Assembly (NCBI GenBank): GCA_050012475.1
Contig: JBEKHC010000060.1
Location: 1 to 32,049, forward strand
Length of the DNA stretch: 32,049 nt
Origin: Candidatus Velthaea sp.
GTDB lineage: Bacteria; Vulcanimicrobiota; Vulcanimicrobiia; Vulcanimicrobiales; Vulcanimicrobiaceae
Direction of reading: 5' to 3'
Part shown: piece by piece, positions 1 through 20,236 of the stretch
Layout: each line of letters starts with the position of its first letter
How positions within the stretch are numbered: position 1 is the stretch's first letter
Program-made: the position numbers and the translations under genes
Notes under the pieces: generated by a model
What the model was told of the DNA's origin: nothing
Seen by the model: only the letters and a program-made list of their open reading frames with translations
The model's database searches: none

Positions 1-134
1 CTTTGTTGGAGTGAGGCATATACTGACGCCATCCGCGAACGTCGCACTCGGGCCGAGCGGAGCGTGATCCTCAAGAAAGCCCCTTGGACTTCTCGGGTTC
101 GCGGAGCGTTAGAAATGGCATCGCAATGTCGGGA

Positions 135-2795
135 TCAGGCATTCGTGACGGCAGAATACGGGCGTACGCCATCGGTAGAAGGCCCCGCCGCGCCATCGGG
201 CCTGCACGGGATGGAAAACGAGAACGAAGCACCGGGGCCATCATTTGCGGACGCCCAAATTCGGCCGCGATGGCTCTCGATGATCGAGCGACTGACCGAC
301 AGCCCGATTCCCATTCCTCCCTCCTTCGTGGTGTAAAAGGCCTCGAAGAGTTTGTTGGCGGCCTCGGGTTCGATCCCGACGCCCGCGTCTTGCACGGTCA
401 GACGAACACGATCACCTTCGTCTGGCTGTGTCTTGATTACGATTTGACGCGGACGATCGTGGATCCGGCTCATCGCATCAGAAGCGTTGAGCAGCAGGTT
501 CAGTACAACTTGCTGAAGTTGGACGCGGTCGCCCATCACGCGAGGGATTTCGGTGGCGAGCTCGTCGCGCAGCACGACCCGATTTGCTTGAAGTTCACCC
601 CACGAAAGCGCGATGACCTCTCGCGCAGCCTCACTCAGGTCTATCGGTTCGCTGGCACCGATCTTTTTGGCAAAGAGCGAGCGCAATCGCGTCATCACAT
701 CGGACGCACGTTTGCCGTCACGAATGATGCGCTGCGTGGTTTCGCGAGCGTCATCGACGTTTGGAGGATTCGTGGCCAGCATTCGCTGGCACGTGCCGGC
801 GTTGAGGATGATGCTCGATAGAGGCTGCTTTATTTCGTGCGCGATCGACGCCGTCATTGCTCCGAGGGTGGTGACCCTTGCCACGCGCGCGAGCTCAGAA
901 CGAACCTTTCCGAGCGCGTCTTCCGAAAGGCGCCGTTCGGTGATGTCCTGAACGGCACCAATGATCTCCAACTGGCCATTGGGGTCTTGGGTCGCGTAAG
1001 CTATCGTATGCAGGTACTTGACCGAGTCATCCGGCATTCGCAGGCGTATCTCGTAGTCAAGGTCACTGCCGGCCGTTCGTGCCTGGCCCAGCTTTTTAGA
1101 AAACGACGTGATATCTTCCGGGTGGACTCGGCCACCCATCCGCTCCAGCGTCACGGGCTCATCCTGCTCAAAATCGAATATGCGATAGAGTTGCTCCGAA
1201 AACACGATCTCGTCCGTGTTCACGTGCCAGGAAAAGGTACCCGTTACGCTCAGGCGTTGGCCTTTTGCGAGAAACGCCTCATTGAGCCGGAGCTTCTCCT
1301 CGGCCCGTTTCCGATCATCGATATCGGTGTTGGTCCCGTACCATTTGACGGTGTTGCCGAATTCATCGCGGAGCGGATTCGTGCGCAACAAAAACCAGCG
1401 GTACGCCCCGTCAAACCGGCGCAGTCGAGCTTCGACCTCTCCTGCCTCGTCGACGGTCGTGATGCGTTCCCACGCACCGGATAGATGGTCGAGATCGTCA
1501 GGATGAACCGCGGCCGTCCAGCCCCAGTCCTGCGCCTGTTCCGCAGAGAGGCCCACGTAGTCGAGATAGTGCTGGTTGAAGAATTCGGCGGAACCATCTG
1601 GGCGAGCAGACCAGGCGAGGGCAGGAATGGTGTTGATGATCTGCTTGAAATGTTGCTCGCTCGCCCGAATCGCATCCTCGGCGTGTTTGAAGTCGTCGAT
1701 ATCCGTGAGCAGGTCGTACCACACGGTGATACGAGCATCGGCATCTCGGACCGGAAGACCGCGCACCTGGAACCACCGGTACACGCCGTCGGCTCGGCGG
1801 AAACGGCATTTAACTTCGTACGGAGTTCCGGCCGTTGCTGAATTTGCAAAGGCTGCGATCACCCGAGACTGGTCATCTGGATGAACGGCTTCGCTGGTCG
1901 CCCAGCCTTTCAATTCCTCAGGCGTCTTGCCAAAGTATTCCAAGACTTGCCGGTTGAAAAGTTCCACCTCACCGGAGGGACTCATCGTACACAGAAGTCC
2001 GGGTATGCTGTCGATTATCTGGCGGAGATGAAACTCGCTCGCGCGGAGAGCTTGTTCGGCTCGCTTTTGATCGTCGATGTCCGTTTGCAAAACGTACCAG
2101 CGGGTCACGGCGGCTGAGCTGTCTTTAAGCGGCAGTCCGCGCGCCCGAAACCAGCGATACACACCATCGGCACGGCGCATGCGGTGCTCGATCTCGTAGG
2201 GCTCTCCCGTGTTTACCGATCGTGTCCATGCAGCAACGATCGCTGGAAGATCATCGGGATGACAGAAGTCACCGGTCGTCCACGCTTTGAGCTCGTCGAG
2301 GGTCGCGTTGAAGTATTCGAGGACATGGCGGTTGACGTTCTCGACCGCGCCCGTCGACGACATCACCGCAATGAGGGCTGGAACGCAGTCGGCAATCGCA
2401 CGAAATTGACTCGCGCGCTCGCGCAACTCGTCCTCGGCGCGCTTGCGTTCTTCAATGTCGGTGTTAATGCCGCACCATTTGACGATCCGTCCGGACGGAT
2501 CGAGCACTTGACGCTCGCGGAAAGCAAACCAGCGGTACACGCCGTCGAAGCGTCGCATGCGCGCTTCCAATTCACGCGGCTCACCCGAATCCAGGATGGA
2601 CTGCCAGCCCGCTAACAGCCCTGCCAGGTCATCGGGATGGATTGCCGCCAGCCATCCGCGCCCGTAGGCTTCGTCTACGGTGAGCCCCGTATATTCGCAC
2701 CAGCGCTGATTGACGAAATCGGCTTCCCCACTCGGACGTGCGGTCCACACCAAACCGGGTAAGGAATCCACGACGCGGCTGAGCTCGCTCTCCAT
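135..2795 (-). CDS. Cytoplasmic multi-PAS sensor histidine kinase (5 PAS/PAC + HisKA + HATPase; NodV/TodS-like)
   Basis: Tandem PAS-PAC units (HPDD...RRxDGxYRWF...TDIDD), H-box SIAHEIKQPL, N-box QVVLNLLLNA, G1 DAGVG, FYTTK, G2 GMGIGL; no TM segments. Start set at ATG 2795 (MESELSRVVD) because it matches the paralog start MDSDLSRVVD at 9075 and a promoter-like TGGACG-18-TATACT lies just upstream. Confidence 0.93.
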   Translation of the reverse strand: MESELSRVVDSLPGLVWTARPSGEADFVNQRWCEYTGLTVDEAYGRGWLAAIHPDDLAGLLAGWQSILDSGEPRELEARMRRFDGVYRWFAFRERQVLDPSGRIVKWCGINTDIEERKRAEDELRERASQFRAIADCVPALIAVMSSTGAVENVNRHVLEYFNATLDELKAWTTGDFCHPDDLPAIVAAWTRSVNTGEPYEIEHRMRRADGVYRWFRARGLPLKDSSAAVTRWYVLQTDIDDQKRAEQALRASEFHLRQIIDSIPGLLCTMSPSGEVELFNRQVLEYFGKTPEELKGWATSEAVHPDDQSRVIAAFANSATAGTPYEVKCRFRRADGVYRWFQVRGLPVRDADARITVWYDLLTDIDDFKHAEDAIRASEQHFKQIINTIPALAWSARPDGSAEFFNQHYLDYVGLSAEQAQDWGWTAAVHPDDLDHLSGAWERITTVDEAGEVEARLRRFDGAYRWFLLRTNPLRDEFGNTVKWYGTNTDIDDRKRAEEKLRLNEAFLAKGQRLSVTGTFSWHVNTDEIVFSEQLYRIFDFEQDEPVTLERMGGRVHPEDITSFSKKLGQARTAGSDLDYEIRLRMPDDSVKYLHTIAYATQDPNGQLEIIGAVQDITERRLSEDALGKVRSELARVARVTTLGAMTASIAHEIKQPLSSIILNAGTCQRMLATNPPNVDDARETTQRIIRDGKRASDVMTRLRSLFAKKIGASEPIDLSEAAREVIALSWGELQANRVVLRDELATEIPRVMGDRVQLQQVVLNLLLNASDAMSRIHDRPRQIVIKTQPDEGDRVRLTVQDAGVGIEPEAANKLFEAFYTTKEGGMGIGLSVSRSIIESHRGRIWASANDGPGASFSFSIPCRPDGAAGPSTDGVRPYSAVTNA

Positions 2796-2832: not shown

Positions 2833-2877
2833 AGTATACAGCACTCTCCGAGCGCACGTCCATATGACTTTGTCCCG
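2833..2877 (-). promoter_or_regulatory. Putative promoter of kinase 1 with a degenerate copy of the island box
   Basis: Minus strand reads CGGGA-CAAA-GTCAT-ATGGACG, 18 nt, TATACT; same geometry as the other box-containing promoters. Confidence 0.5.
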
Positions 2878-3175
2878 GAGCCGCTCGGAGTGCGGGCCGT
2901 ATGTGAAATCATATCGGCGCCGGAAAGCAGGAGAAGAAGCCGTTATGCCATCAGTAGGTCGTCCAAGGAGAGAAGGGCCGACCGCCGGCCAGGACGTTGT
3001 TCTGCACGCAGCCTTTTGACGGGCCTGCGCGCACCGCTAAGGTTAAGAGGAATGAAGTCGTCGCCGATGAGTCTATTTGCGGGCCGAACGGCGGCGCGTC
3101 GCTCATGCGGGATACGCGTGACGTTATGACGGTTCGAGCGTACGAACGTAGGGCTGCTGCCGGCGCCTACGACTG

Positions 3176-3772
3176 CTAATCCTGTTCACCGAGAGTTTGG
3201 ACGTACGTTTTGCCGTATGGATAGAAGAGTTCGTTGCGGCCTTGCTGCCACGCCGCTCTGAGTTCGGGCGCGGTAATGTCCCAGTCCGGCCGGCATTTTT
3301 TGCTAACGGCACGTAGATCCTGACGGAGATCTTCCATCGTTGGTCGGCCGAAGAACCAGTAACCGTTGTAGATCTTATAAACGACCAGACTGGGTTCGAG
3401 GACGATCACGTGGGGGATCATCGGATTATTGACAGGGTCCGTGTATTCGGCGATGTCGAGGTCTTTCTGGACGATACGGCCCGCGTCGGAGAGGAAAGGC
3501 CAATGGGCGCCGACTCCGCTGCGATATTCGTTCGTCTGCGTAATATTGTCGGTGCTAATGGTAACGAGCCGGCAATAGGCGACCTCGAGCTCACGATGGA
3601 GTGCAACGAGCCCTTCAGCCTGCCGGCGGTCCTTCGGACAGTATCCTCCTCGGCTGAGGACGAGAACCATCGGATGTTGTCCTTGCAGCTCAGAGAGCTT
3701 TCGGCGTTTCGCGGTGTGGTCGGAAAGCTCAAAGTCCGGGAAGATCGCGCCCGGAACAATCTCAGATCGCAT
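3176..3772 (-). CDS. Redoxin / AhpC-TSA-like thioredoxin-fold protein
   Basis: PGAIFPDFELSDH...LSELQG..PMVLVLSRGGYCPKD...FLSD..R pattern; single active-site Cys (CPKD); GAGAGGA RBS before ATG 3772. Confidence 0.8.
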   Translation of the reverse strand: MRSEIVPGAIFPDFELSDHTAKRRKLSELQGQHPMVLVLSRGGYCPKDRRQAEGLVALHRELEVAYCRLVTISTDNITQTNEYRSGVGAHWPFLSDAGRIVQKDLDIAEYTDPVNNPMIPHVIVLEPSLVVYKIYNGYWFFGRPTMEDLRQDLRAVSKKCRPDWDITAPELRAAWQQGRNELFYPYGKTYVQTLGEQD

Positions 3773-4065
3773 TCGAAAGGTTCCTCTCGGGCATCCGTCC
3801 GCAGCTGCTTGAAACTCGTTGCCGTGCACGAAGCTGATGGCGGCTTCTTTTCCCCAGGCGCAGCAAGCAAAATCGCAATCGCCCGTCTCGAGGCCGGAGC
3901 GAGCCGCAAAGATTGACTGAAACCGACGATAAGCTTCCTTGCCCGGGATCGATTCTCTTTCGACGGTGTCCTTGAGCTGCCGGTCCTTGCCCGGGTCGTG
4001 TGCCTTCGCCGAGACTCTCGAGTGCCAACTCGAGCGGAACCATGCACGGCCGCGGGAACGACAAA

Positions 4066-4152
4066 GGACTCGCGTACCGAAGCGTCGTCATCAACGACAA
4101 AAACCGTCGCCTCGGACTTCAGTTGAGGAGTGCGCTGCGTCGAAGCCATCAT
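4066..4152 (-). pseudogene. N-terminal remnant of a FixJ/NodW-type response regulator
   Basis: GGAGA RBS then MMASTQRTPQLKSEATVFVVDDDASVRES, which matches [15 protein letters not shown] of the intact regulator at 13476; similarity stops abruptly after about 29 codons. Confidence 0.7.
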
Positions 4153-4193
4153 TCTCCGATATCTTTGAGGTGCGGAATGTTTTGCGTAAACGG

Positions 4194-4595
4194 TCATGCG
4201 GAGGGCGAGTGAAGTTCCGCGTTCAGGGCTTTGAAAACAGTCTCGAGCAAAACGTTGTCATCGAAGGGCTTATCCAGGAACTCGATCGCGCCCGCACGCA
4301 TGGCCTGCGTTCGCATCCACTCTTCTCCATATGCGGTAATAAAGATGATCGCGACGCGGTCACCATCGTGTGCTAACTTCGCTTGCAAATCAAGACCGCT
4401 CATCCCCGGCATTTGGACGTCGGTGATCAGACACGCAGTGTCGCTCCGTATTCCTGAATTCAAAAACTCATCCGCTGATCCGAACGAGCGAGCTGTCAGG
4501 CCGACTGATTTCAGCGCCTCGTGGATCGCGCTGCGCACGGACTCGTCATCGTCCACGACGGCGACTAGCTGTCTCTTCGGCGCTGCGTTCTTCAC
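4194..4595 (-). CDS. Single-domain response regulator (receiver only)
   Basis: VAVVDDD, CLITDVQMPGMSG (phospho-Asp), IIFITA, FLDKPF; GTG start by alignment with paralog 14201-14578. Confidence 0.9.
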   Translation of the reverse strand: MKNAAPKRQLVAVVDDDESVRSAIHEALKSVGLTARSFGSADEFLNSGIRSDTACLITDVQMPGMSGLDLQAKLAHDGDRVAIIFITAYGEEWMRTQAMRAGAIEFLDKPFDDNVLLETVFKALNAELHSPSA

Positions 4596-4652
4596 ACCGG
4601 GAAGATAACACGCCGATTCGGAGGCGGCAATTATTCTCTGGGACGTCTTAGC

Positions 4653-4666
4653 TATACCAAAGTATA
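4653..4666. promoter_or_regulatory. Palindromic regulator box TATAC-CAAA-GTATA
   Basis: Perfect 5-4-5 inverted repeat 58 bp upstream of the receiver gene; near-identical to 14129-14142. Confidence 0.7.
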
Positions 4667-4830
4667 CTAACGATGCTTTCTTCCCATTTGACATCGATGG
4701 GCGACAGGCACGCTTTGCTCCCCACAGCGTCCTGGTAGTCGTGGTCGAGGTTGTCACCGATGGTCTTGTAGGCGCGGCGACACACTGCTGAAGCGAAGCT
4801 CGTCGGAGAGCGAATCTTGAGCGCAAAGTC

Positions 4831-4850
4831 CATACTAAGGTCTAATGGAC
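4831..4850 (+). promoter_or_regulatory. Island box abutting a -35-like element upstream of the cytochrome gene
   Basis: CATAC-TAAG-GTCTA-ATGGAC. Confidence 0.62.
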
Positions 4851-4904
4851 ACTGCTTCGCGCGTGATGCAGCATGCTGTCAGAAGCTGGAAGGGGGACGA
4901 CCTT

Positions 4905-5396
4905 ATGCGAAAACTCGCGTATTTGGTGATGGCGGTGTTGGCATTAGCTGCCGTACCAATTGAAATGGTTGACGCCACTGGAGAACTTCCCTCCGGATAC
5001 CGGGACTGGAAGCTGGTGACCGTTGCCCACGAAGCAGGCAACAACAACGACCTTCGCGCCGTGCTCGGTAACGATGTAGCGATCAAGGCCTTCCGGGAAA
5101 AGAAATTGCCGTACCCGGACGGCACAATCATCGTCCGGCTGGCCTGGCGCTACGTTCCGTCGCCGGAGAACGACAAAATCTTCGGCCGTGCCCAGTCCTT
5201 CGTTGCCGGATCCCCCATTAACGTACAGTTCGAACGGAAAGACTCAAGAAAATACGCCTCGACGGGCGGCTGGTCGTTCGTTCAACTCAAGGACGGCAAA
5301 CTTGCCGACGCGGCGGTGCAGCGGACCTGCTTCCCCTGCCACCAGCTTGCCGGGACGAAGGATTTTGTCTTCACTCACTACTCGCCCTCGCCCTGA
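4905..5396 (+). CDS. Cytochrome P460 / c'-beta family periplasmic c-type cytochrome
   Basis: Signal peptide, P.GYRDW, PDGTIIV, KD..KY..TGGW, C-terminal heme motif CFPCH followed by DFVF; AGGGGG RBS before ATG 4905. Confidence 0.85.
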   Translation: MRKLAYLVMAVLALAAVPIEMVDATGELPSGYRDWKLVTVAHEAGNNNDLRAVLGNDVAIKAFREKKLPYPDGTIIVRLAWRYVPSPENDKIFGRAQSFVAGSPINVQFERKDSRKYASTGGWSFVQLKDGKLADAAVQRTCFPCHQLAGTKDFVFTHYSPSP

Positions 5397-5580
5397 TGTG
5401 CTTGCCGCGCTACGTCTATCGAAGTCGAACGGTGAATGCGCCCGACCGCAACGATCGTGAGACGGCTCGCTTACGAGTGCCTGCTCAAGATTCGTTGAAT
5501 CCCGTACTGCGCTGCTTTTCGCGCATTGTCGGTACGATATTCGACGTAAGTCAAAGGACAAAGACGTTCAGCCGCTAGGC

Positions 5581-5625
5581 GATACCAAAGTATAATGGAC
5601 GGCTGGTTGGAGCTTGACATATTCT
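5581..5625 (+). promoter_or_regulatory. Island box plus promoter upstream of the epoxide hydrolase
   Basis: GATAC-CAAA-GTATA-ATGGACG, 18 nt, TATTCT. Confidence 0.65.
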
Positions 5626-5734
5626 GGTGACCTGGGCGAGCGTCTCGATCGGGCGGCAAGAAGACGCTCCAAGCCGGTTTCCAAGTGGGAAGCAGACGAT
5701 CTTTCCCGTCGTCGATGTGTCCGGAGTGACTCCA

Positions 5735-7084
5735 ATGTCGAAAAATCTGGTTCTCGATCGCCGTGGCTTTTTAGGAATTGCAGGGGCAGCCATTGTCGCC
5801 GGTCCGCTCGGTCTCTCGGGGTTTGCGGAGCGGCCCAACGTGATGACGGAAGTTGCAGAACTGACGCCGAAAAGCGGTTCCGCCGTTCGTCCCTTTCGAG
5901 TAAACGTTGCGGACACGGATCTCGACGAACTGCGCAAACGCATTAAGGCGACGCGCTGGCCCGACCAAGAACCAGTCGCAGATAATTCACAAGGCGTGCC
6001 GCTGGCGATGATTCAGGGGGTTGCGAGTTACTGGGCGACGGACTACGATTGGCGAAAGTGCGAGGCGAAGCTCAACGCCTTGCCGCAATTTCTGACCGAG
6101 ATCGATGGGCTCGACATTCATTTCATACACGTTCGGTCGAAACATAAAAACGCGCTGCCGTTGATCGTCACGCACGGCTGGCCCGGGTCGATCATCGAAC
6201 AGCTGAAGATCATCGAACCGCTGACCGATCCGACGGCACATGGGGGGAGTGCGTCGGATGCCTTCCATATCGTTGTTCCCTCGATACCAGGGTACGGTTT
6301 TTCGGGACGGCCGACCGTGACCGGATGGGGTACCGAACATACGGCACGCGCCTGGGTCGTGCTGATGAAACGCCTTGGCTATAAGCAGTTCGTTGCGCAA
6401 GGCGGCGACCTTGGTTCGGTGGTTACGACGTTGATGGGCGAACAAGCCGCGCCGGAACTGCTGGGGATTCATACGAGCCTGCCGGCAACCGTGCCGCCTG
6501 CCATTGCAAAATCGCTGGCCAGCGGCGACCCCGCGCCGGGCGATCTTTCAGCCGATGAAAAGCACGCCTACGAGCAGCTCCAGCTGCTGTATGGGAAGCA
6601 ATTCGCCTATGCCGCGTTCATGCATACACGGCCGCAAACGCTCTACGGATTGGCTGATTCCCCCGTGGGTCTGGCGGCCTGGCTTCTGGATCATGGCGAC
6701 GGCAACGGCCAACCGGCGGCTGCTGTCATCTCCGCGCTGGCTGGGCATACGATCGACGGTCATAGCGCCGGAGATCTGACGCGCGACGACGTCCTCGACA
6801 ACATCACCCTGTACTGGCTGACGAATACCGGGATTTCTGCGGCCCGGTCGTATTGGGAAAATAAGACCAGCCCGATCAACGCCGCCAACGTCGCCATCCC
6901 GGCTGCCGCAACCGTGTTCCCCGACGAGATCTATGAGGCTCCGCGCAGTTGGACGCAGCTCGCGTTTCACAAGCTCATCTATTTCCATAAGGCGGAAAAG
7001 GGCGGTCACTTTGCAGCCTGGGAGCAGCCGCAAATCTTTTCCGAAGAGGTTCGCGCTGGTTTTCGATCGCTGCGACAAGCGTGA
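5735..7084 (+). CDS. Epoxide hydrolase (EHN domain + alpha/beta hydrolase) with Tat signal
   Basis: DRRGFLG twin-arginine motif, RPF.V...TRWP, HGWPGS, QGGDLG (Asp nucleophile), GGHFAAWEQP; GGAG RBS before ATG 5735. Confidence 0.92.
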   Translation: MSKNLVLDRRGFLGIAGAAIVAGPLGLSGFAERPNVMTEVAELTPKSGSAVRPFRVNVADTDLDELRKRIKATRWPDQEPVADNSQGVPLAMIQGVASYWATDYDWRKCEAKLNALPQFLTEIDGLDIHFIHVRSKHKNALPLIVTHGWPGSIIEQLKIIEPLTDPTAHGGSASDAFHIVVPSIPGYGFSGRPTVTGWGTEHTARAWVVLMKRLGYKQFVAQGGDLGSVVTTLMGEQAAPELLGIHTSLPATVPPAIAKSLASGDPAPGDLSADEKHAYEQLQLLYGKQFAYAAFMHTRPQTLYGLADSPVGLAAWLLDHGDGNGQPAAAVISALAGHTIDGHSAGDLTRDDVLDNITLYWLTNTGISAARSYWENKTSPINAANVAIPAAATVFPDEIYEAPRSWTQLAFHKLIYFHKAEKGGHFAAWEQPQIFSEEVRAGFRSLRQA

Positions 7085-7186
7085 CGTGGCCCGAATGCAA
7101 GGTGCGGCGCATCGCCGGCACGGCTGGGCGCGCGCAATGGGTCGAAGGAACGGGATGACATCGGCGCGGCACTAGTAACCGCGCGC

Positions 7187-7771
7187 GTGCTGGAGCGGGC
7201 AGAGCTGCCCGTCGATACCGTCCGGCTCGCACGTTTTCTCATCGGCAAACTGCTCGTGCGGATACTGGCTGAAGGCGCGGCGGGCGGCCGTATCGTCGAG
7301 ACCGAGGCCTACGACATCGGCGACCTCGCGGGCCACGCCTATCGCGGCATGACCCCGCGCACCCGGGCGCTCTTCCTCGAGCGCGGACACGCCTACGTGT
7401 ATCTCGCCTATGGCAGGTCATTCATGTTGAACGTCTCCAGTGAGGCGGCCGGCGTGGGCGCGGGTATTTTGATCAGGGCGATCGAGCCAACGGATGGCAT
7501 CGCCATCATGAAGCACAATCGTGGAACTCAGCGGGTGCGTGACTTAGCGCGCGGTCCGGGACGATTGAGTGCGGCCTTGGCGATCGATCGCCGGCTGGAT
7601 GGAATCGACCTTTGCCAGGTCGGCCCGCTGTGGCTGGGTTCCGACGGTCGGGCGCCGGACGAAATCGGACAGAGCAAACGGATCGGCCTTACGCGCGCGG
7701 CCGACCGTCTACTGCGATTCTACGTTCGGGGCAATCGTTTCGTCAGCGGTCCACTGGCGCTCAATACATGA
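7187..7771 (+). CDS. mpg: DNA-3-methyladenine glycosylase (AAG/MPG family)
   Basis: GRIVETEAY, GHAYVYLAYG, LIRAIEP, RGPGRL, RIGL motifs; true start uncertain (RBS-backed ATG at 7156 is out of frame). Confidence 0.9.
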   Translation: MLERAELPVDTVRLARFLIGKLLVRILAEGAAGGRIVETEAYDIGDLAGHAYRGMTPRTRALFLERGHAYVYLAYGRSFMLNVSSEAAGVGAGILIRAIEPTDGIAIMKHNRGTQRVRDLARGPGRLSAALAIDRRLDGIDLCQVGPLWLGSDGRAPDEIGQSKRIGLTRAADRLLRFYVRGNRFVSGPLALNT

Positions 7772-7775
7772 GCGT

Positions 7776-7870
7776 TCAAGGCGTGTCGCGCCAGAAGGAG
7801 AGGATCGCCGCGGCGAGTTCGTCGGGACACTCCTCGGGCAGAAAGTGTCCGCAGCCGGCGACAACCGCGC
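7776..7870 (-). pseudogene. C-terminal remnant of an alpha/beta hydrolase
   Basis: AVVAGCGHFLPEECPDELAAAILSFW* is a typical catalytic-His C-terminus; no hydrolase N-terminus is present upstream. Confidence 0.65.
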
Positions 7871-7914
7871 AAGGCCTAGCCGGAAGCCGGTGCGCCGGGC
7901 GGTCGTGCTCGGCG

Positions 7915-8349
7915 TTAACGGCTCGCGACAGCGGGACCGCCGCGCCAGACGCTCCCGTCGGCAAAAATGACTTCCGATACGTTGCATGTTGCGTTCGGAG
8001 CGTCGATGGGATTGGCGATCGCGAAATGGTGTCTGATCTGCGCGCCGGAAGTAAACGTTCCTTTGTCGACGATGATCTGCGTCGATTGTCCGGCATTGAC
8101 CGCGAACTTCACGAGCGTTGCCGCGACGGTGCCGGTGTTAACGAACTTGATGTTGATGTCCGTATCGATGAACTGCGGGGCTTGCTCGACGTCGGCGATG
8201 GCGCCCGGCGTATAAAGTTCTCTGACGCCAAACGACGAGATCGCTATGGGCGACTTGACCGCGTAGGAGATGTTCTGTGCTTGTGCCAGGGCCGGTGCGG
8301 CGGCGACGAATGCGGCTGCCGCGCAGAATTTGAGAACGTGCTTCGACAT
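7915..8349 (-). CDS. Secreted beta-strand-rich hypothetical protein (144 aa)
   Basis: AAGGAG RBS, Sec signal ending ALA/AQA; motif I.FVN...A..V.F......DKGTF..G..I.H.F...TC.V..V.FADGS.W; a paralog fragment lies at 14879. Confidence 0.82.
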   Translation of the reverse strand: MSKHVLKFCAAAAFVAAAPALAQAQNISYAVKSPIAISSFGVRELYTPGAIADVEQAPQFIDTDINIKFVNTGTVAATLVKFAVNAGQSTQIIVDKGTFTSGAQIRHHFAIANPIDAPNATCNVSEVIFADGSVWRGGPAVASR

Positions 8350-8431
8350 GGATCCTGCTCCTTGTATTTTGACGGATATTGAAATAGCGCTGGCTCTCCG
8401 CCCCGTCTTCGTGGCCAACGCCGGAACACAA

Positions 8432-8475
8432 GGATAGGTCACGGTGCCGTAAGAGGTCCATCGTACTTTGGTGTC
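8432..8475 (-). promoter_or_regulatory. Island box plus promoter for the secreted protein gene
   Basis: Minus strand GACAC-CAAA-GTACG-ATGGACC, 18 nt, TATCCT. Confidence 0.62.
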
Positions 8476-8591
8476 GCTCCGTGGCCGCTATGCGCACCCG
8501 CATCAACCGCGCCGACAACGCTTACGCGCGGGCGGGGCCAAGCGCGTCGATGCCTTCCCGTGTGCGATGGCGCGCTGTTGTGGCGCGGATC

Positions 8592-8635
8592 TACACCAAA
8601 GTCTAATGGACGTGTTCTGCGGAGTACATTACTAT
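8592..8635 (+). promoter_or_regulatory. Island box plus promoter for the 50-aa small protein
   Basis: TACAC-CAAA-GTCTA-ATGGACG, 17 nt, TACTAT. Confidence 0.65.
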
Positions 8636-8743
8636 CGGTCCAAGATCCGGCTGATATCCGATCCGCTCCGCAGACGTCTCCGCACCGACGGCGATGATTG
8701 TGCGCGCAGAGGGTAAGCCGTCCACGACTGCGAGGCAAATACA

Positions 8744-8896
8744 ATGGCAGGCATCATGGTCTTTTCTTCCATCGGCGAGGCAATGCGGGCAGGCTTTCAA
8801 GTGTACGATCGAACGAGCAACGGGTATCTCGTGCGAACGCGCACGGCTCACGGGTGGGCGCTCGCGATCGTTGACGTCGTAAGCCCCGAGAGCTAA
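8744..8896 (+). CDS. Small 50-aa protein MAGIMVFSSIGEAMRAGFQVYDRTSNGYLVRTRTAHGWALAIVDVVSPES (absent from the ORF track)
   Basis: Translated by hand: GAGG RBS at 8732-8735, ATG 8744, TAA 8894-8896, own box and promoter upstream; globular-looking helix plus beta-strand pattern. Confidence 0.75.
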   Translation: MAGIMVFSSIGEAMRAGFQVYDRTSNGYLVRTRTAHGWALAIVDVVSPES

Positions 8897-9019
8897 GCCG
8901 AGGCGTCGCTCCCGCCGGCAGTCTGAGCGAACCGAGACGGACGAAGAGTCGTTCGAATGCCGAGGCTCCAACCTGGTGACCGGCCGTCGCCTCCGGCGAC
9001 GGGCTTGCACGAAGCCCGC

Positions 9020-9048
9020 TGGACGTTCTGAGTAGTGTGGCATATCCT
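9020..9048 (+). promoter_or_regulatory. Putative sigma70-type promoter of kinase 2
   Basis: TGGACG-17-TATCCT followed by CTTG; resembles the kinase 1 promoter TGGACG-18-TATACT-CTTG. Confidence 0.45.
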
Positions 9049-9074
9049 CTTGTCACGGCCACAAGAGGACGGCA

Positions 9075-12000
9075 ATGGACAGCGACTTGAGCCGCGTCGT
9101 CGATGCGCTTCCCGACCTGGTTTTTCGTGCGCTCCCCGACGGGCAAATCGACTTTTTCAACCAACGCTGGTGCGAGTACACGGGTCTTCGGGTTGACGAA
9201 GCGTGTGGCCGGGGGTGGCTGACTGCGATCCACCCGCAAGACGTGCCGGAGCTGCGCGAGCGTTGGCGGTCGATGCTGACGTCCGCCGTGCCGCATGAAT
9301 TCGAGGCGCGGCTGCGGCGCGCCGATGGAGCTTACCGCCGGTTCCACTTCCGAGCCGCTCCGGTAACCGATGCCGCTGGAAGCTTGGTAAAGTGGTGCGG
9401 AACGTGTACCGATATCGAGGACCGCAAACAGGCCGAGGAGGCGCTACGCGCGCGTGAGCACCATTATCGCTCGATCGTCGATAGCATCCCGGCCCAGATT
9501 TCTACGATGACGCCGTCCGGCGCAGTCGAAAGTGCTAATCGCCTCACCCTGGAATTTTTCGGCGCTACGCTCGATGAGATCAAGAGTTGGGCGACCGCCG
9601 ACCTCGTGCATCCGGATGACCTTCCCGCTGTGGTAGCTGCATGGACGCGTTCCGTCCAATCTGAGGAAGCATACGAGATCGAGCACCGGATGCGCCGCGC
9701 CGACGGGGTTTATCGCTGGTTCCACGTGCGCGGTCTGCCGCTTCGGGACAGCGAAGGCCAGGTCGTCCGCTGGCACGTTCTGGAGACCGACGTCGATGAC
9801 CGCAAACGAGCTGAAGCTCTGCTTGCCGGTGAAAAGCGGTTTCTCGAAATGGCCGCAGGCGGTTTGTCGATGCGGGCGATCCTTGAAGCGCTCTGTGAGT
9901 TTGTCGAAAGCACGGACGGCGGATGTTATTGCAGCGTCGTCCTAACCGATCCGAGCGGAACGCGTCTTGAATACGGGGCCGCGCCGAGCCTGCCGGCGAG
10001 CTTCCTCACCTCGATAGTCGGTCGGCCCGTCAGCGTCGATGCGGGTCCGTCCGCGATGGCGGCATGCCTGAACGAACAAGTCATTGCTGCTGACCTCAGC
10101 TCGGAAACACGCTGGGCGGCGTACGATTGGTGCCCGATGGCCCTGGCTCATGGGCTGCAGGCGTGCTGGTCGACGCCGATCGCATCCTCGACCGGTAAAA
10201 TCCTAGGCGCGTTCGCCATTTACTACAACGTGCCCAAAACGCCGACGCTGGAGCAGAAGGCCCTGATCGACCAGTTCAAACACATCGCGAGCATTGCCAT
10301 CGAACGAGCGCAAAACGACGCAGCGCTCAAGCATAGCGAAGCGCGCAAGGCAGCGATCCTGGACTCGGCACTCGACTGCATCATGACAATCGACCACGAG
10401 GGGCGGCTCACGGAGTTTAATCCGGCTGCGGAGCGCACGTTCGGGTATCGTCGAGACGAGGTCATCGGCAAGGCGCTTGCCGACGTCATCGTCCCGCCGT
10501 CGCTCCGGGAGAAGCACCGTTTGGGGTTCGTACGTTATTTGGCGACCGGCGAGGAGCGAGTGATCGGGAGGCGCATCGAGATAATGGCGCTGCGGGCCGA
10601 CGGGGTGGAATTCCCGGTCGAGCTTGCGATCACTCGGATCCCGTTAGACGGGCCGCCGTCCTTCACCGGGTACCTGCGCGACATAACGGAACGAAAACAG
10701 AGTGAAGAAACCTTCCGCGCGATCGTTGAGACCACACCTGAGTGCGTCAAGCTGGTCGCACGCGACGGCACCTTGTTGCGCGTTAATTCGGCTGGACTGG
10801 CTATGGCGGGGGCGGACCCTACGGACCATGTCGTAGGTCGAAGCTTCTACGACTTCCTCGCCCCGGAAGATCGCAGCCGATATCGCGAATTCAACGAGCG
10901 CATTTGCTCCGGGGAGAAGGGATTTCTGCAGTTCGATATCATCGGTATGCGAGGCGATCGCCGGCAGATGGAAACACACGCAGCCCCGTTGCGAATCAAC
11001 GACGGATCCGTCGTGCAGCTTGGAGTTACTCGCGACATCACGGAACGCAAACGGTCGGAAGAGAAACTGCGGCGCAGCGAAGCGTATCTGGCGGAAGCTC
11101 AAAAACTGAGTCTAACCGGAAGCTTTGGCTGGCGTGTTTCCACGGACGAGCACGTTTGGTCGGACCAGACCTTCCGCATTTTTGAATATGAGGTCACGAC
11201 GGAGATCACACTCGAGCGGATATTAGAACGAGTTCATCCGGCGGATAAACCGCTCATGCAGCAGGCCGCAGCTCTGGCAGCGGAGGGCAGAGATTTTGAT
11301 TACGAATGTCGCCTCTTGATGCCGAGCGGATCGGTGAAATATCTTCACATCGTAGCGCATGCGTCTCGGGATCAGGATGGCCGTGTAGAGTATATCGGCG
11401 CGGTTCAGGACATAACCGAGCGCCGACTCTCGGAAGAAACGCTCGGCAAGGTCCGCTCCGAGCTCGCGCACGTCGCTCGGGTCACGAGCCTCGGAGCGTT
11501 GACGGCATCGATCGCGCATGAAGTCAACCAGCCATTGTCAGGTATCATCACCAACGCCGGTACTTGCCTGCGGATGCTCGCTGCCGATCCTCCGAACGTC
11601 GACGGCGCGCGCGAAACTGCGCAGCGCACGATTCGCGACGGCCACCGTGCATCTGATGTGATCAAACGGTTACGTGCGCTCTTTAGCAAAAAGGATGCTG
11701 CTACGGAATTGGTGGACGTCAACGAAGCGACGCGGGAAGTGCTTGCGCTGTCGTGGAGCGAGCTCCACCGAAGCGGCGCGACTCTACGGACGGAGCTGGC
11801 CGCCGACCTTCCGGCTGTCACAGGCGATCGTGTCCAGCTTCAGCAAGTCATTTTGAACCTGCTGCTCAACGCTTCGGAAGCGATGAGCAGCATCGACGAT
11901 CGTCCGCGTGATCTGCTGGTTCGAACCCAACGAGAAGAACCCGAGCGTGTCCGGCTGAGCGTGCAAGATTCGGGCGTGGGTCTCGGGCAAACTGAGGGTA

Positions 12001-12227
12001 AACTCTTCGAGGCGTTCTTCACAACGAAGAGCGGCGGTATGGGGATCGGGCTTTCCATCAGCCGCTCGATCATCGAGAGTCATCGCGGACGCCTCTGGGC
12101 ATCGCCGAATGACGGCCCGGGCGCCACCGTTTCATTTTCCATTCCCGTTGGAGTTGAGAGCTTCACGGATGCCTCTGCCCCGGGTGCCATTCGCACGGTA
12201 CTTTTGCGCGACGGTCAGTCGTTGTAA
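9075..12227 (+). CDS. Cytoplasmic sensor histidine kinase PAS-PAS-GAF-PAS(FixL-like)-PAS-PAS-HisKA-HATPase
   Basis: PAS repeats, GAF (AAPSLP...ACWSTPI...GAFAIY), H-box SIAHEVNQPL, FFTTK, GMGIGL; AGAGGA RBS; close paralog of 135-2795. Confidence 0.95.
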   Translation: MDSDLSRVVDALPDLVFRALPDGQIDFFNQRWCEYTGLRVDEACGRGWLTAIHPQDVPELRERWRSMLTSAVPHEFEARLRRADGAYRRFHFRAAPVTDAAGSLVKWCGTCTDIEDRKQAEEALRAREHHYRSIVDSIPAQISTMTPSGAVESANRLTLEFFGATLDEIKSWATADLVHPDDLPAVVAAWTRSVQSEEAYEIEHRMRRADGVYRWFHVRGLPLRDSEGQVVRWHVLETDVDDRKRAEALLAGEKRFLEMAAGGLSMRAILEALCEFVESTDGGCYCSVVLTDPSGTRLEYGAAPSLPASFLTSIVGRPVSVDAGPSAMAACLNEQVIAADLSSETRWAAYDWCPMALAHGLQACWSTPIASSTGKILGAFAIYYNVPKTPTLEQKALIDQFKHIASIAIERAQNDAALKHSEARKAAILDSALDCIMTIDHEGRLTEFNPAAERTFGYRRDEVIGKALADVIVPPSLREKHRLGFVRYLATGEERVIGRRIEIMALRADGVEFPVELAITRIPLDGPPSFTGYLRDITERKQSEETFRAIVETTPECVKLVARDGTLLRVNSAGLAMAGADPTDHVVGRSFYDFLAPEDRSRYREFNERICSGEKGFLQFDIIGMRGDRRQMETHAAPLRINDGSVVQLGVTRDITERKRSEEKLRRSEAYLAEAQKLSLTGSFGWRVSTDEHVWSDQTFRIFEYEVTTEITLERILERVHPADKPLMQQAAALAAEGRDFDYECRLLMPSGSVKYLHIVAHASRDQDGRVEYIGAVQDITERRLSEETLGKVRSELAHVARVTSLGALTASIAHEVNQPLSGIITNAGTCLRMLAADPPNVDGARETAQRTIRDGHRASDVIKRLRALFSKKDAATELVDVNEATREVLALSWSELHRSGATLRTELAADLPAVTGDRVQLQQVILNLLLNASEAMSSIDDRPRDLLVRTQREEPERVRLSVQDSGVGLGQTEGKLFEAFFTTKSGGMGIGLSISRSIIESHRGRLWASPNDGPGATVSFSIPVGVESFTDASAPGAIRTVLLRDGQSL

Positions 12228-12332
12228 GGAGCCGCCGGCGAGAAGCTTCGGCCTGCGCCGACGGCTGCTTCCACCTAGCCCGGGCCGGTGAGGACTCGCG
12301 CCTGTTCGGTCTCGCCCCGGACGACTGGGCGC

Positions 12333-13091
12333 CTTCGTGAACGTCATCGGTTCGTTCTCGAGGAATGCCCAGGTGTTGAAGGAGTCGTGCGCCATCACAC
12401 CATGGACTTTGCGCCGCTGCATCCCGATGTTGCCGGCATCGTAGATCGGAAAACAGAGCGCTTCACGCATGTACTTTTCGAGCGGATTTTCGCGGTCATA
12501 ACTGTTTACGCCCATGACTCGCATACATGTGTAGACAAGATCGACGCACATTTCGCCGCCGTAGATTTTGGACCAAGCACCGGGCACGTGTCCCTCGCTG
12601 TCGTAGAGGTCGAGATAGTGGGCAGCCTTCCAAGACTAATAGCGTGCCGACTCGATCTTCATGGCGATGTCCGAAAGCAAATAGGCAACGTGCCGGTGTT
12701 GAATAATTGGCTGAGAGCCGCCTCCGGTGTGCTCTTTCGCCCAGCCGAGCGTATATTCATAAGCTGCTCTTGCCACGCCGACTGCGGCGATTGCAGCGAC
12801 CGGGCCCGACCAGGTAAAGGCCTTGCTGATGACCAGGTCGCCGTTGCCCTTCGTACCGGAAATGACGTTTTCTTCGGGCACGATGACGTCCTCGAAGACG
12901 AGCGATGCATTCGAACAGAGGCGGTGCCCCATCTTGTCGATGTAGGCCGGTTTCGTTTTCGCGAACGACTCGTGTGGATCGCTCGACGCGTCCGCCTCTT
13001 TGACGAGCGGGGCAAGGATGTTTTGCGCGAAGTCACGAGCACCTTCGCGCAGCTCTTGCTGCTTTTCGGTAAGCGTGAAGTCTATTGGCAT
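12333..13091 (-). pseudogene. Disrupted acyl-CoA dehydrogenase-family gene, nitroalkane-oxidase-like
   Basis: MPIDFTLT N-terminus joined directly to IDKMGHR (middle domain missing), in-frame TAG at 12636-12638 (ARY*SWKAAH), C-terminal PIYDAGNIGMQRR. Confidence 0.85.
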
Positions 13092-13475
13092 GCGTTCACC
13101 CTCTGTGTGGTCAGGGAGTTCGAGAAGTGCTCGGGCGGCCTGATGCAGCTCGTGAAGCGACCTCTCCCGGAAAAATTGCAAGCCGCTTTGCGACCAAGTG
13201 TCGGGGGATGATTCGGTTACCCGGTGCCGCTCGGTTGGGGACATGGTAAGGGGTGTTCCCGCCCGGCGTTCAGCGGCGACGTTCGAGTGGAATTAAGGGC
13301 AGGCGCGCTTTGCGGCGCGTCAAGCCATATTTTGTGGGCTTTCGATGAGCCCGCCGATTGTCTACGCTTATCGCGGACGGGTTTGGACGGCACCAACCGG
13401 TTTTCATTGCCAGGATCCTGCGGGGCAAACGCGATGGGAAGACGACCGAACGGCGATTAGGACACGGGAGAGCGT

Positions 13476-14099
13476 ATGTCTGAGGACCGGCCGACGGTTT
13501 TTGTCATCGACGATGACGTTTCCGTTCGCGAGGCGATCGAGGGCATGGTAAAGTCCGTCGGGCTGTTTGCCCGGACGTTCACGTCCGCACAAGACTTTCT
13601 CCGAAATCCTCCGATCGACGGACCCAATTGCCTCGTTCTCGATGTCAGACTGCCGGGGCTGAGCGGGCTTGACCTCCAGCATGAGCTAACCGCCGCGGAT
13701 ATCCAGATCCCGATCATTTTCATCACCGGGTTTGGTGACATCCCCATGAGCGTGCGAGCGATGAAGGCCGGCGCCGTTGAGTTTTTGACGAAACCCTTCC
13801 GCGACCAGGACTTGCTGGACGCGATTGCGCACGCACTCGAAAGGGACCGCGTCATGCGGCGCCAGCGTTCCGAGCTCGTGGCGTTGCGGGAGCGCTTCGA
13901 GGCGCTGACCGAGCGCGAACGCCAAGTACTGGCCATGGTCGTCGCGGGCAAGCTAAACAAGGTGATCGCGGCTGAGTTGGGTACGAGCGAGATAACCGTC
14001 AAGGTTCAACGCGGCCATGTCATGCGCAAGATGCAAGCGGAGTCGGTTATCGACTTGGCGAGAATGGCCGAGAAACTCGACCTTCGCCCGCCGAAATAG
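13476..14099 (+). CDS. FixJ/NodW/StyR-type response regulator (REC + LuxR HTH)
   Basis: [35 protein letters not shown]...[35 protein letters not shown]. Confidence 0.95.
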
Positions 14100-14127
14100 C
14101 TTGCTGCCGTGATCGCCGCTATACGCG

Positions 14128-14143
14128 CTATACGTTGGTATAG
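14128..14143. promoter_or_regulatory. Palindromic regulator box CTATAC-GTTG-GTATAG
   Basis: Perfect 6-4-6 inverted repeat about 58 bp upstream of the receiver gene; an extra GTATA half-site at 14159 abuts TTGCAC (-35-like). Confidence 0.7.
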
Positions 14144-14200
14144 GTTATCGGCCTCTGCGTATAATTGCACGGCGCCCTGTCCCAGTGATAGCTTTCAGCT

Positions 14201-14578
14201 GTGAACCCCGAGCCGAAAACTCGCCTGGTTGCCGTAGTGGACGATGATGAATCCGTGCGCGGTGCGATCCATGGTGCGCTGGCGTCGGTCGGCCTGCAAG
14301 CCCGGTTGTTTGGCTCAGCGGAAGACTTCTTGGACTCCGAACTGCACAGCGACATCGCCTGTTTGATCAGCGATATCGAGTTGCCTGGAATGAGCGGTCT
14401 CGAGCTTCAAATCAAATTGGCGGAAAGCGGTTGGCGCGTGCCGATCATCTTCATCACGGCGTTTGGAGATCCAATGATGCGAGCGCAGGCAATGAGAGCC
14501 GGTGCTACTGAGTTTCTTGAAAAGCCGTTTGATGGCGATTTCTTGCTCGATACGGTGCGGGCAGTTCTGGGGACCTGA
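14201..14578 (+). CDS. Single-domain response regulator (receiver only)
   Basis: VAVVDDDESVR, CLISDIELPGMSG, IIFITA, FLEKPF; paralog of 4194-4595. Confidence 0.92.
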   Translation: MNPEPKTRLVAVVDDDESVRGAIHGALASVGLQARLFGSAEDFLDSELHSDIACLISDIELPGMSGLELQIKLAESGWRVPIIFITAFGDPMMRAQAMRAGATEFLEKPFDGDFLLDTVRAVLGT

Positions 14579-14600
14579 GCCCGCCGATACGTCGTCCGGT

Positions 14601-14772
14601 AACAGACTCACCCCGCGCGAACGAGACGTGATGGAGCACGTCGTCGCGGACCTGAACAAACGGAACGAGCCTAGCATCAGCCTCTGCGGTGAAAAGCACA
14701 GCGGGTAGCTCGATGCGAAAAATGAAAGGAACCTCGTTAGCCGAATTAGTCCTGATGCCCGTAAGACTTTGA
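14601..14772 (+). pseudogene. Degenerate LuxR-type HTH remnant of a FixJ-like regulator
   Basis: RLTPRERDVMEHVVADLNK in one frame, then MRKMKGTSLAELVLM in another; matches the C-terminus of 13476-14099. Confidence 0.75.
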
Positions 14773-14878
14773 CTCTCGCGCGTGCTCCAGACGGCGACGT
14801 GCGTTCCTTACCGATCGAACGCCGCTCCTCATGTTGGCTCCGCGCCGTTGTTCTTCGTTGCGCAGCGAAGAGCGATGC

Positions 14879-15229
14879 CCGGTAACGGGTGTGACGTTCC
14901 TGGTGAGCAATGGCCATGACACGCAAAGCATCGTGGACAAGGGAATCTTCAGTCCGGGCGTTCAGATAAAACATACGTTCCCAATCGCCAACGCCCTCGG
15001 CGAGTTCTCCGACGCCACCTGCGAGGTTGCCCAAGTCGACTTCGCTGACCGCAGTGCCTGGCATGGCGTTGACGGATACACCGCCACCGAGTCCGCTGGG
15101 ATGACGGCCGCGAATAAAGCCGATGCAGCGCAACACCCCGACTCGAGGCCCAAACATCGGGCCGAGCTGGGACGATCGGGCAGCGCGCAGCGTGACCTGC
15201 TCTTCCGCAACCAAAGCACGAGCCTTTAG
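14879..15229 (+). pseudogene. 5'-truncated paralog of the secreted protein at 7915-8349
   Basis: VTFLVSNGHDTQSIVDKGIFSPGVQIKHTFPIAN...ATCEVAQVDFADRSAW aligns with VKFAVNAGQSTQIIVDKGTFTSGAQIRHHFAIAN...ATCNVSEVIFADGSVW; signal peptide and N-terminal half absent. Confidence 0.7.
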
Positions 15230-16801: not shown

Positions 16802-17636
16802 ACGAGGCATGGTACCAACATCGGGCGTCCGTCAAGCAATAAGTGGATAGGCGTTCGCTCACTCGCCGGTCACTGTTCGGTTGCTGAGGGTCGTAGCTTT
16901 TTCATTCTCGCACACGCGGAGGCACTTAAGCGCCAAGGTCGTCCCGGCGAAATAATCGCCGCACGCGCGCTCCCGGATCGCGTCAGCTTATGGCAGTAGT
17001 TGCGGCATCGGCACCGATTTGTATCGGAATGGCGAGCAGCATCGCACAGGTGTGAGCGCGCGCACCGGTTCTGAGACGCTTTATTCGGTTATTGACGTTA
17101 ATCTCAGGAGCCGTCTTGCCGAAAGTTAACACATCGGAATCGGCGATTGAGACCCAAGAAGTCGAAGGGATGTGTACGGTGCGTGGAGCGCGGAAAACGG
17201 AACGGGCGCGGCTGAATGCGTTACTTGACGCTATATGGGGACGAGATCGGCCCATGACGGACCCAAAGTCCCACTTCGATGCCACGTCGATCTTTGCAGC
17301 CAAGCTGCTGCGGGTTTCAACGTGCTGCTCGCCGAGGGCGCGCCCCTCGCCATAGAAACCACCTCGGGGTTCACCTGGCCTCCCGCGCCCGGCGACGCGT
17401 CAATATGACTTGAACGGGGTCGATCCGCCGATGTTTTCGGTAAGCGAGATCTTACGAAAGCTCTTCGTCAACGTGTTTCGGCGGTGCCGCAAGACGGCTC
17501 GATCCGCGATGACCAAGCGTTGGCGTCGGCGCAGACGCGCGGTAACGACAAGGTCGAGCCGGCGAAAGCGCGCAACGCGCAAACCGAAACGAGTTCATCG
17601 CACCCTAAGCTCCGTTGCGGCGGATGGAAGGCGCTT

Positions 17637-19166: not shown

Positions 19167-19243
19167 TGCTTGTCAATCTCCTCGCGGTTTCTCGGCGCGG
19201 CGTCATGCACCGATCGATATCCGGCGATTATGCGCTATGACCC

Positions 19244-19262
19244 GGGGCTTGCCGCAAGCCCC
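19244..19262. promoter_or_regulatory. RAE-like (rifamycin-associated element) 19-bp palindrome GGGGCTTGC-C-GCAAGCCCC
   Basis: Perfect 9-1-9 inverted repeat 78 bp upstream of the monooxygenase; the GCTTGCGGCAAG core matches the recalled actinobacterial RAE; CATAAT lies 19 bp after TTGCGG on the gene strand. Confidence 0.75.
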
Positions 19263-20189: not shown

Positions 20190-20236
20190 TAGAAGGATTT
20201 GTGAGCGCTACCGAAATCGTTATCGGAGGACGGCCG

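Follow-up and report, generated by a model that had tools for sequence, protein, structure and literature searches.

Two promoter classes in a dual-kinase island of Candidatus Velthaea sp. and their probable assignment to two paralogous StyR-like response regulators

We analysed a 32,049-nt stretch of DNA (the window) from Candidatus Velthaea sp. (contig JBEKHC010000060.1 of assembly GCA_050012475.1), which carries an island encoding two soluble histidine kinases (kinases 1 and 2), two receiver-only proteins and a response regulator at 13476-14099 (13476), together with inverted-repeat boxes upstream of many of these and neighbouring genes. An original prediction from the sequence of the window held that seven such boxes are variants of one element, TATAC-N4-GTATA, at which 13476, phosphorylated by both kinases, mounts a self-contained response. 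Instead of a single shared box, we find two promoter classes, A and B. With a probability of about 0.68, the two classes would serve two paralogous StyR-like regulators acting in series, 13476 at class B and a paralogue on another contig of the same genome at class A, with both kinases feeding the latter tier. It is highly probable that the boxes serve this regulator family as activator sites at all.

All seven predicted boxes (2877, 4653, 4831, 5581, 8475, 8592 and 14129) were present at their coordinates and on their strands. They had been described as intergenic, and all seven do lie 5' of probable start codons, but three fall within mechanically extended open reading frames (ORFs). Six of them are strong; 2877 retains only its right half. 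TATAC-N4-GTATA with at most two mismatches had six matches in the window versus 1.38 expected, a number equalled in 1 of 100 shuffles; 8475 and 2877 are not among the six, and one of them, at 12522 in a broken acyl-CoA dehydrogenase gene, is probably due to chance. That match and the weak matrix matches at 1926 and 6283 were discounted because they are inside genes. AC-N4-GT-N3-ATGGAC with at most one mismatch had four window matches, all exact, versus 1.29 expected, and four shuffles equalled this number. Across the 5.36-Mb source genome (G000; C5, C39, C92, C105 and C148 are other contigs of it, and G003 is a genome of the same genus), CAAAGT-N3-ATGGAC occurs at seven sites, four of them inside the 32-kb window, and perfect TATAC-N4-GTATA at three, two of them inside; the third palindrome lies away from the island at C92:18552-18565. 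In this check of background frequency, the boxes were far denser in the window than in the rest of the genome, and the part of the window outside the island (15275-32043) contained no strong boxes.

Class A has the form RAYAC-CWWN-GTMYA-A-TVGAY, followed after 17 or 18 bp by a -10 box, and includes 4831, 5581, 8475, 8592 and the decayed 2877, which has a class-A score of -6.7 and a right half and tail that are equalled or beaten at 45 genome positions. Class B has the form YATAC-CAAN-GYATR, then A-TTGC, and its members 4653 and 14129 both lie 5' of receiver-only genes. These two do not stand alone: each forms the distal part of a 21-bp tandem, and the degenerate proximal site adjoins A-TTGC, followed 17 or 18 bp further on by a -10 box. 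Boxes of 13476 relatives are similarly followed by A-TTGCG and occur singly or as the distal member of a 21- or 22-bp tandem. The -35/-10 geometry of the original prediction was found as proposed, the box ending one base 5' of a defective -35 hexamer with the -10 box 17 or 18 bp further; class A appears to have a -35 without its second T, and the two classes may thus represent two ways of crippling this hexamer (TVGAC versus TTGC). Beyond the seven boxes, we identified a bare class-A core before kinase 2 (9020-9048) and six class-A boxes on C5, C39, C105 and C148. Only three TGGACG-type cores with a 17-bp spacer like that at 9020-9048 are present in the genome, and the other two are boxed. A reading with one motif and one regulator was dropped; the ATGGAC tail is absent from 13476-like loci.

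The second family regulator is encoded on C5 and is 52% identical to 13476. Both consist of a receiver and a LuxR-type helix-turn-helix (HTH) domain and keep the phospho-accepting aspartate, and the recognition helix reads KAHRG in the C5 regulator instead of KVQRG. The C5 gene is the only intact KAHRG gene found in the genome, and a class-A box lies directly behind it. The KAHRG regulators group together in a single clade (37 of 38 rows, support 98). The Val-to-Ala change in the C5 regulator is at the contact position of StyR Val176 and NarL Val189, and StyR Val176 has been named as a DNA contact (PMC5874301). We infer that this change may cause the relaxed half-sites of class A.

The two classes track different regulators. 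In 80 loci of 13476 relatives, mostly from Acidobacteriota, TATAC-N4-GTATA was the most enriched 5-N4-5 inverted repeat (10 loci versus 0.06 expected), and the ATGGAC class had no exact match. Of 65 receiver-only genes, 52 have a class-B box no more than 300 nt away, in 51 cases in one orientation, versus 1.7% of 1974 random windows. By contrast, among the regulators beside ATGGAC-selected metagenome sites, 26 of 27 distinct ones were KAHR (one doubly listed locus counted once). In loci that were not selected by motif, with 21 unclassified rows excluded, a box followed by AT(G/A)GAY was present within 4 kb of 7/15 KAHRG versus 3/106 Val/Ile (V/I) regulators, and a box followed by RTTGY near 0/15 versus 37/106. 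A matrix trained only on the 10 class-A sites of G000 gave 35 matches in 13 of 14 KAHRG loci and seven matches in 7 of 99 other loci, and class-A density was 93 per Mb in KAHRG loci versus 3.7 per Mb elsewhere, i.e. ~25-fold higher. The Bradyrhizobium KAHRG loci, which were held out of training, had 17 matches in 8 of 10. In the class that includes Edaphobacter (221 genomes), five genomes had a match of 64% identity or more to the C5 regulator, and the three genomes with the strict class-A pattern all belonged to this group; the other 24 genomes, whose matches were weaker and of which G419 is likewise KAHRG, lacked it. Among 251 genomes of the window's phylum, 11 had family regulators, and the strict pattern was found in G000, G003 and G183. 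No relatives of the C5 regulator were found in viral contigs. Because the ATGGAC class is absent from the 80 13476-like loci and tracks the KAHRG clade, 13476 is not supported as reader of all seven boxes and is likely the wrong regulator for five of them.

The kinases, which had been predicted to be the partners of 13476, both group with KAHRG-linked kinases instead. In the kinase tree, which covers kinases operon-linked to either regulator type, they fall in a clade with support 97 that contains 18 of 20 KAHRG-linked and none of 59 V/I-linked kinases, and their best identities are 74% and 70% to KAHRG-linked versus 53% and 51% to V/I-linked kinases. The kinase type that accompanies the nearest relatives of 13476 was not found in the assembly, which holds only two kinases of the family. 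Kinase 1, kinase 2 and the C5 regulator are intact and keep their phospho-accepting residues. Each kinase has one HisKA/HATPase module and no receiver, and kinase 1 has no clear transmembrane stretch (maximum hydropathy 1.63). In the alignment of the FixL-like PAS of kinase 2 to the FixL haem PAS, the histidine is aligned and the distal arginine position is not.

The module recurred where loci were selected by DNA pattern alone. A metagenome scan of this kind matched at least 120 stretches, and among 80 fetched loci a full-length family regulator was present within 3 kb in 29, a receiver in 47 and a related kinase in 34, with relatives of the epoxide hydrolase in 12. By manual count, 58 of 76 metagenome loci scanned for downstream ORFs lead to a receiver, a kinase or a MEDS sensor (36, 17 and 5 loci, respectively). 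The promoter geometry recurred as well: at 76 distinct metagenome sites selected by the box only, an.A...T hexamer was found at spacer 17 in 44 and at spacer 18 in 25, and at any other spacer in at most 13. In related loci, 3 of 66 class-A sites lie inside long ORFs. For 19 of 70 class-A sites and 27 of 29 class-B sites, a long ORF has its start codon exactly 50 or 51 nt from where the box begins. This position is the predicted +1; many transcripts, including those of both window receivers, are therefore likely leaderless, and the box centre would be at -43.5 or -44.5.

The predicted regulon of kinases, receivers and detoxification-type genes is supported, but it is not self-contained, since six further boxes and the intact KAHRG regulator are on other contigs. 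For a class-A matrix, a window-trained seed was used to select 19 sites in other genomes; scored with this matrix, G000 had 10 sites of at least 23 bits on five contigs, the next scoring 17.3; four column shuffles gave none at 17. The window contains four of the 10 sites. Those elsewhere lie 5' of a DUF305-glyoxalase pair and an HTH gene (C5), a DipZ-like thioredoxin gene (C39), a DUF4331 gene (C105) and a metallo-beta-lactamase-fold gene (C148), and a second C39 site faces the 3' end of a kinase gene. No class-A box precedes any of 12 unlinked paralogues of window targets. In other loci, 12 of 14 P460 homologues have a class-A box 5' of them; the single mpg homologue in related loci is without a box. 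A manual tally covered 64 ORFs behind 66 class-A sites of related loci (two excluded). Of these ORFs, 27 were signalling or regulatory and 15 had no Pfam match; the remaining 22 encode enzymes of detoxification or redox type, among them epoxide hydrolases, glyoxalases, nitronate monooxygenases, GMC oxidoreductases, flavodoxin-fold reductases, OsmC and DJ-1. In S. fredii, operons headed by class-A boxes carry genes for three epoxide hydrolases as well as for a VOC protein, GST and msrBA; S. meliloti 1021 had no record among the matches to the loci tried, including an R. leguminosarum locus. In many metagenome loci, a KAHRG regulator and receiver are divergent from P460, with a class-A box facing each direction. 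In G003, the order is kinase, V regulator, class-B box, receiver, KAHRG regulator, class-A box and secreted protein, and further class-A boxes lie 5' of the 50-aa protein, epoxide hydrolase, glyoxalase and V-type kinase genes.

In the mechanism that we favour, kinases 1 and 2 would sense a cytoplasmic cue, possibly including a gas via the FixL-like PAS, and would phosphorylate the KAHRG regulator, of which the only intact copy found is on C5. Phosphorylated regulator dimers would bind centred at -43.5 or -44.5 and bring in RNA polymerase in the manner of NarL at yeaR. By this route, the C5 regulator would activate the genes for P460, the epoxide hydrolase and the secreted and 50-aa proteins as well as the six promoters on other contigs, and would weakly activate both kinases in a positive feedback, while 13476 would activate both receiver-only genes from class B; the receivers would likely be phosphate sinks that damp the loop. 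In the presumed ancestral layout, seen in G003, the class-B operon also carried the KAHRG gene, which would make a cascade. In the genome studied here, the upper tier is partly decayed. The output is likely a defence against reactive electrophiles and oxidants, as judged from the targets. More tentatively, and with somewhat less than even odds, the system could be a widespread, undescribed two-tier cascade of soil bacteria in which the Val/Ile versus Ala residue of the recognition helix and the TTGC versus TVGAC tails insulate the paralogues. Its lower tier would be an autoamplified regulon for defence against electrophiles and oxidants, with input from several soluble multi-PAS kinases and damping by leaderless receiver-only proteins, and could still work in trans once the island's regulator copies are lost. 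The loci concerned come from Acidobacteriota, Alpha- and Betaproteobacteria and the lineage of the window.

Several points weigh against the assignment to two regulators. The binding, phosphotransfer and start sites of the model are predictions, as is the signal, which is read from target annotations only. Apart from the class-A box behind it, no recognisable box or kinase lies beside the gene of the C5 regulator. The trees with supports 98 and 97 are FastTree trees without bootstrap; the class-B matrix that scored 52 of 65 receiver-only genes had been trained on 29 of these sites; and related genomes are not independent, so that the Fisher values for the comparison of KAHRG with other loci by the G000 matrix overstate the significance. 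In Bradyrhizobium, the strict class-A pattern was found in 1 of 10 KAHRG genomes, and the link required the matrix. L102, a motif-selected locus, has only a V/I regulator together with class A. G183, G575 and G633 have one strict class-A match each without a clear KAHRG regulator: no family member was found in G183 (95% complete), the best match in G575 was 53%, and the best full-length match in G633 was 45%. The assembly is 93.8% complete with 5.3% contamination, and a missing kinase or regulator may therefore be unassembled. Finally, the 14-bp cores of the classes overlap, with the class-B matrix giving 5581 23.4 bits and C39:169 ~23 bits (the STY2 site of StyR scores 11.9), which makes cross-binding plausible.

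This overlap is also the basis of an alternative in which both paralogues, or a heterodimer, read both classes in a shared regulon and the -35 tails reflect promoter history. The recognition helices of the paralogues differ at few positions, the class-A box 5' of the V-type kinase operon in G003 suggests that the tiers are interlocked, and overexpressed NwsB substitutes for NodW (PMC5793154), a precedent for cross-talk between paralogues. We nevertheless consider a shared regulon unlikely, given the ~25-fold higher class-A density in KAHRG loci, the lack of the class-B tail near all 15 KAHRG regulators and the separation of the kinases by regulator type. Slightly less probable still is the original model in which 13476, phosphorylated by both island kinases, activates all seven promoters. 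Here 13476 is the sole intact DNA-binding regulator in the island and lies amid the boxes, a matrix from its relatives' loci recovers six of the seven (8475 weakly), and, with its own kinase lost and the local second regulators dead, rewiring is conceivable; against this stand the KAHRG-clade membership of both kinases, the absence of exact ATGGAC-class sites from the relatives' loci, and the intact C5 regulator with its class-A box.

The remains of two regulators and a kinase, the broken dehydrogenase gene and the decayed boxes at both kinases might instead mean that the regulon is vestigial here and that the boxes are unused leftovers of a decaying island. This seems very improbable, as ten near-consensus class-A boxes persist on five contigs, boxes precede lineage-specific genes whose 12 unlinked paralogues have none, and the kinases and C5 regulator are intact. 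We give least credence to the box as the operator of an unrelated protein, e.g. a CsoR/CstR-family repressor, or as part of an alternative sigma factor promoter. Thermus TTHA1953 (CsoR family) does bind TACNNTAC-N4-GTANNGTA, which has the TAC-N4-GTA core in common (PMC10318464), and the genome has one CsoR-family gene and 32 sigma70-region-2 matches. However, the outer repeats that the TTHA1953 operator requires are absent here (outer TAC in 0 and outer GTA in 1 of 57 class-A sites), the CsoR-family gene lies on a different contig, and the box abuts the -35 rather than covering it and tracks the regulator-kinase module across phyla.

The original comparison with StyR/TodT-type sites holds in that the boxes are conserved, StyR/TodT-like activator-type sites directly next to a sigma70-type -35. 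Among solved structures, 13476 is matched best by StyR (PDB 1yio), and its identity to StyR of P. putida S12 is 50%. The StyS/StyR, TodS/TodT and TmoS/TmoT systems share with the present one an inverted repeat with a 4-bp spacer and soluble multi-PAS kinases, and StyR also a box just after the regulator gene. Activation of the StyR type occurs from about -40 (PMC2442086). However, the consensus of StyR, TodT and TmoT is ATAAAC-N4-GTTTAT (PMC5874301), an operator that is not found here, where half-sites are TATAC or RAYAC rather than TAAAC. The helix is KVHRH in StyR versus KVQRG and KAHRG; StyR His179 is Gly in both regulators (and in 58 of 63 relatives), and Val176 is Ala in the C5 regulator. 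Moreover, the kinases lack the double-kinase hybrid layout and internal receiver of StyS and TodS, the targets are many scattered promoters rather than one aromatic catabolic operon, and the present system also includes receiver-only partners and a probable second regulator tier. The system probably functions like StyR/TodT with a variant box, and its recognition residues, operator and kinase layout set it apart.

Among other relatives, an inverted repeat with a 4-bp spacer centred between -40 and -45, as in the NarL/FixJ family, is found here with respect to the predicted starts. NarL has the same HTH family, with base contacts by K188, V189 and K192, and binds at centres of -43.5 and -44.5 at E. 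coli yeaR and ogt (PMC10853779), equal to those predicted here, but it recognises another sequence motif and is a distant protein match (NCBIfam 71 bits versus a cut-off of 250). FixJ is the best NCBIfam model for both regulators and the kinase-2 PAS matches the FixL haem PAS; the scores, however, are 211 and 187 for FixJ (cut-off 255) and 365 and 357 for FixL (cut-off 850), and there are no nif/fix targets. We take NodW and NwsB of Bradyrhizobium to be members of the same regulator group; the flavonoid input and nod targets of NodV/NodW and NwsA/NwsB have no counterpart here. The action of NodW at nod-box promoters is described as unclarified (PMC5793154), and the accessible text of PMC5596368 gives no NodW binding site. 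Should NodW or NwsB fall within the V/I clade, class B would be a candidate for their binding site. Orphan motif 48 of Shewanella (TTtaTAcCTAGgTAtaAA; PMC2532739) has the TAC-N4-GTA core in common but no assigned factor and no -35 tail. In the openly accessible literature, we found no assignment of these boxes to this regulator family; subscription papers and figure logos (e.g. P. aeruginosa DAP-seq, PMC8599809) were largely outside reach.

Kinase-receiver-regulator islands had tblastn matches in 343 plasmid records (E 1e-50) and at least 551 relatives in a genome scan. They are common in rhizobia, Burkholderiales and Acidobacteriota, where they are annotated only as generic response regulators. 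With the two motifs, the predicted starts, the kinase-regulator pairings and the target lists at hand, the family can be tested directly in cultured carriers such as Sinorhizobium fredii CCBAU 45436, Rhizobium leguminosarum WSM1325 and Cupriavidus sp. KK10, and it offers a natural case of insulation between paralogous regulators with nearly identical DNA sites.

Table 1. Features of the island in the window (positions of the forward strand).
Feature	Position	Strand	Remarks
Kinase 1, soluble multi-PAS histidine kinase	135..2795	-	KAHRG-linked clade; Pfam; 886 aa from probable ATG
Class-A promoter of kinase 1, decayed	2833..2877	-	left half-site lost; CAAA-GTCAT-A-TGGACG, 18 bp, TATACT
AhpC/TSA-family redoxin	3176..3772	-	Pfam; no own box
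Truncated response-regulator N-terminus behind receiver 1	4063..4152	-	subtype not assignable from fragment
Receiver-only protein 1	4194..4595	-	predicted leaderless, GTG 7 nt after -10; 67.5% identical to receiver 2
Class-B tandem promoter of receiver 1	4602..4666	-	distal palindrome 4653-4666, degenerate proximal site ending GAATA, A-TTGCCG, 17 bp, TATCTT
Class-A promoter of cytochrome P460	4831..4874	+	weak -10
Cytochrome P460 family protein	4905..5396	+
Class-A promoter of epoxide hydrolase	5581..5625	+	strongest genome site
Epoxide hydrolase (EHN)	5735..7084	+	twin-arginine-like N-terminus
Methylpurine-DNA glycosylase (mpg)	7187..7771	+	no own box
Predicted secreted protein	7915..8349	-	lineage family; G003 homologue also class-A boxed
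Class-A promoter of secreted protein	8431..8475	-
Class-A promoter of 50-aa protein	8592..8635	+
50-aa protein	8744..8896	+	six unboxed paralogues elsewhere in genome; G003 homologue boxed
Bare class-A core of kinase 2	9020..9048	+	box decayed; TGGACG, 17 bp, TATCCT
Kinase 2, soluble PAS/GAF histidine kinase	9075..12227	+	KAHRG-linked clade; one FixL-like PAS; Pfam
Probable remnant of kinase gene 3' end	13335..13397	+	directly 5' of 13476; 52% over 21 aa, pairwise E 0.002; weak
Response regulator 13476	13476..14099	+	K-V-Q-R-G helix; predicted reader of class-B boxes, first tier
Class-B tandem promoter of receiver 2	14129..14194	+	distal palindrome 14129-14142, proximal half-site GTATA, A-TTGCAC, 18 bp, TAGCTT
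Receiver-only protein 2	14201..14578	+	predicted leaderless
Decayed C-terminal HTH remnant of response regulator	14592..14778	+	best matches all KAHRG-type, E 2e-7

Further observations concern the surroundings of the island and the other loci. The acyl-CoA dehydrogenase pseudogene (12228-13091, reverse strand) lies between kinase 2 and 13476, has an internal stop and apparently lacks its middle. At 14885-15067 (forward strand), there is a partial second copy (52%) of the secreted-protein gene, at the place where G003 has an intact boxed gene. The region outside the island (15275-32043) encodes a glucose-6-phosphate dehydrogenase, an FAD monooxygenase, a methyltransferase, a ferritin-like protein and an S1/P1 nuclease as well as a cobalamin adenosyltransferase, methylmalonyl-CoA mutase, MeaB and B12 radical SAM cluster. 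A glyoxalase region at the end of the window (31650-32049) is 81% identical to C5:68822-69219, in a C5 cluster near the KAHRG regulator. Beside the C5 regulator (C5 12776-14491, L001) are two HTH_31 genes, one of them class-A boxed, and a single-domain globin gene. In acidobacterial loci (L291, L292 and L294), class-A boxes lie 5' of sigma70-family genes and a sigma54 activator gene, a hint that there may be a further downstream tier.

At the other end, window positions 1-146 match the start of C39 (C39:3-149) at 88% in reverse orientation; from this match and the presence of only two family kinases in the assembly, C39 probably adjoins the window as a divergent haplotype. The strong class-A box at C39:169 (reverse strand) would then be located immediately 5' of base 1, and the ~110-nt transcript expected from it, possibly a small or antisense RNA, would run toward the 3' end of kinase 1. 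Searches of Rfam gave no family at the leaders, in the window or for this transcript, and a fluoride riboswitch on C39 only (5009-5072). On C105 (~905-1150, L003), the ~420-nt leader from the class-A promoter to the DUF4331 gene holds a duplicated segment of ~110 nt, as judged by eye.

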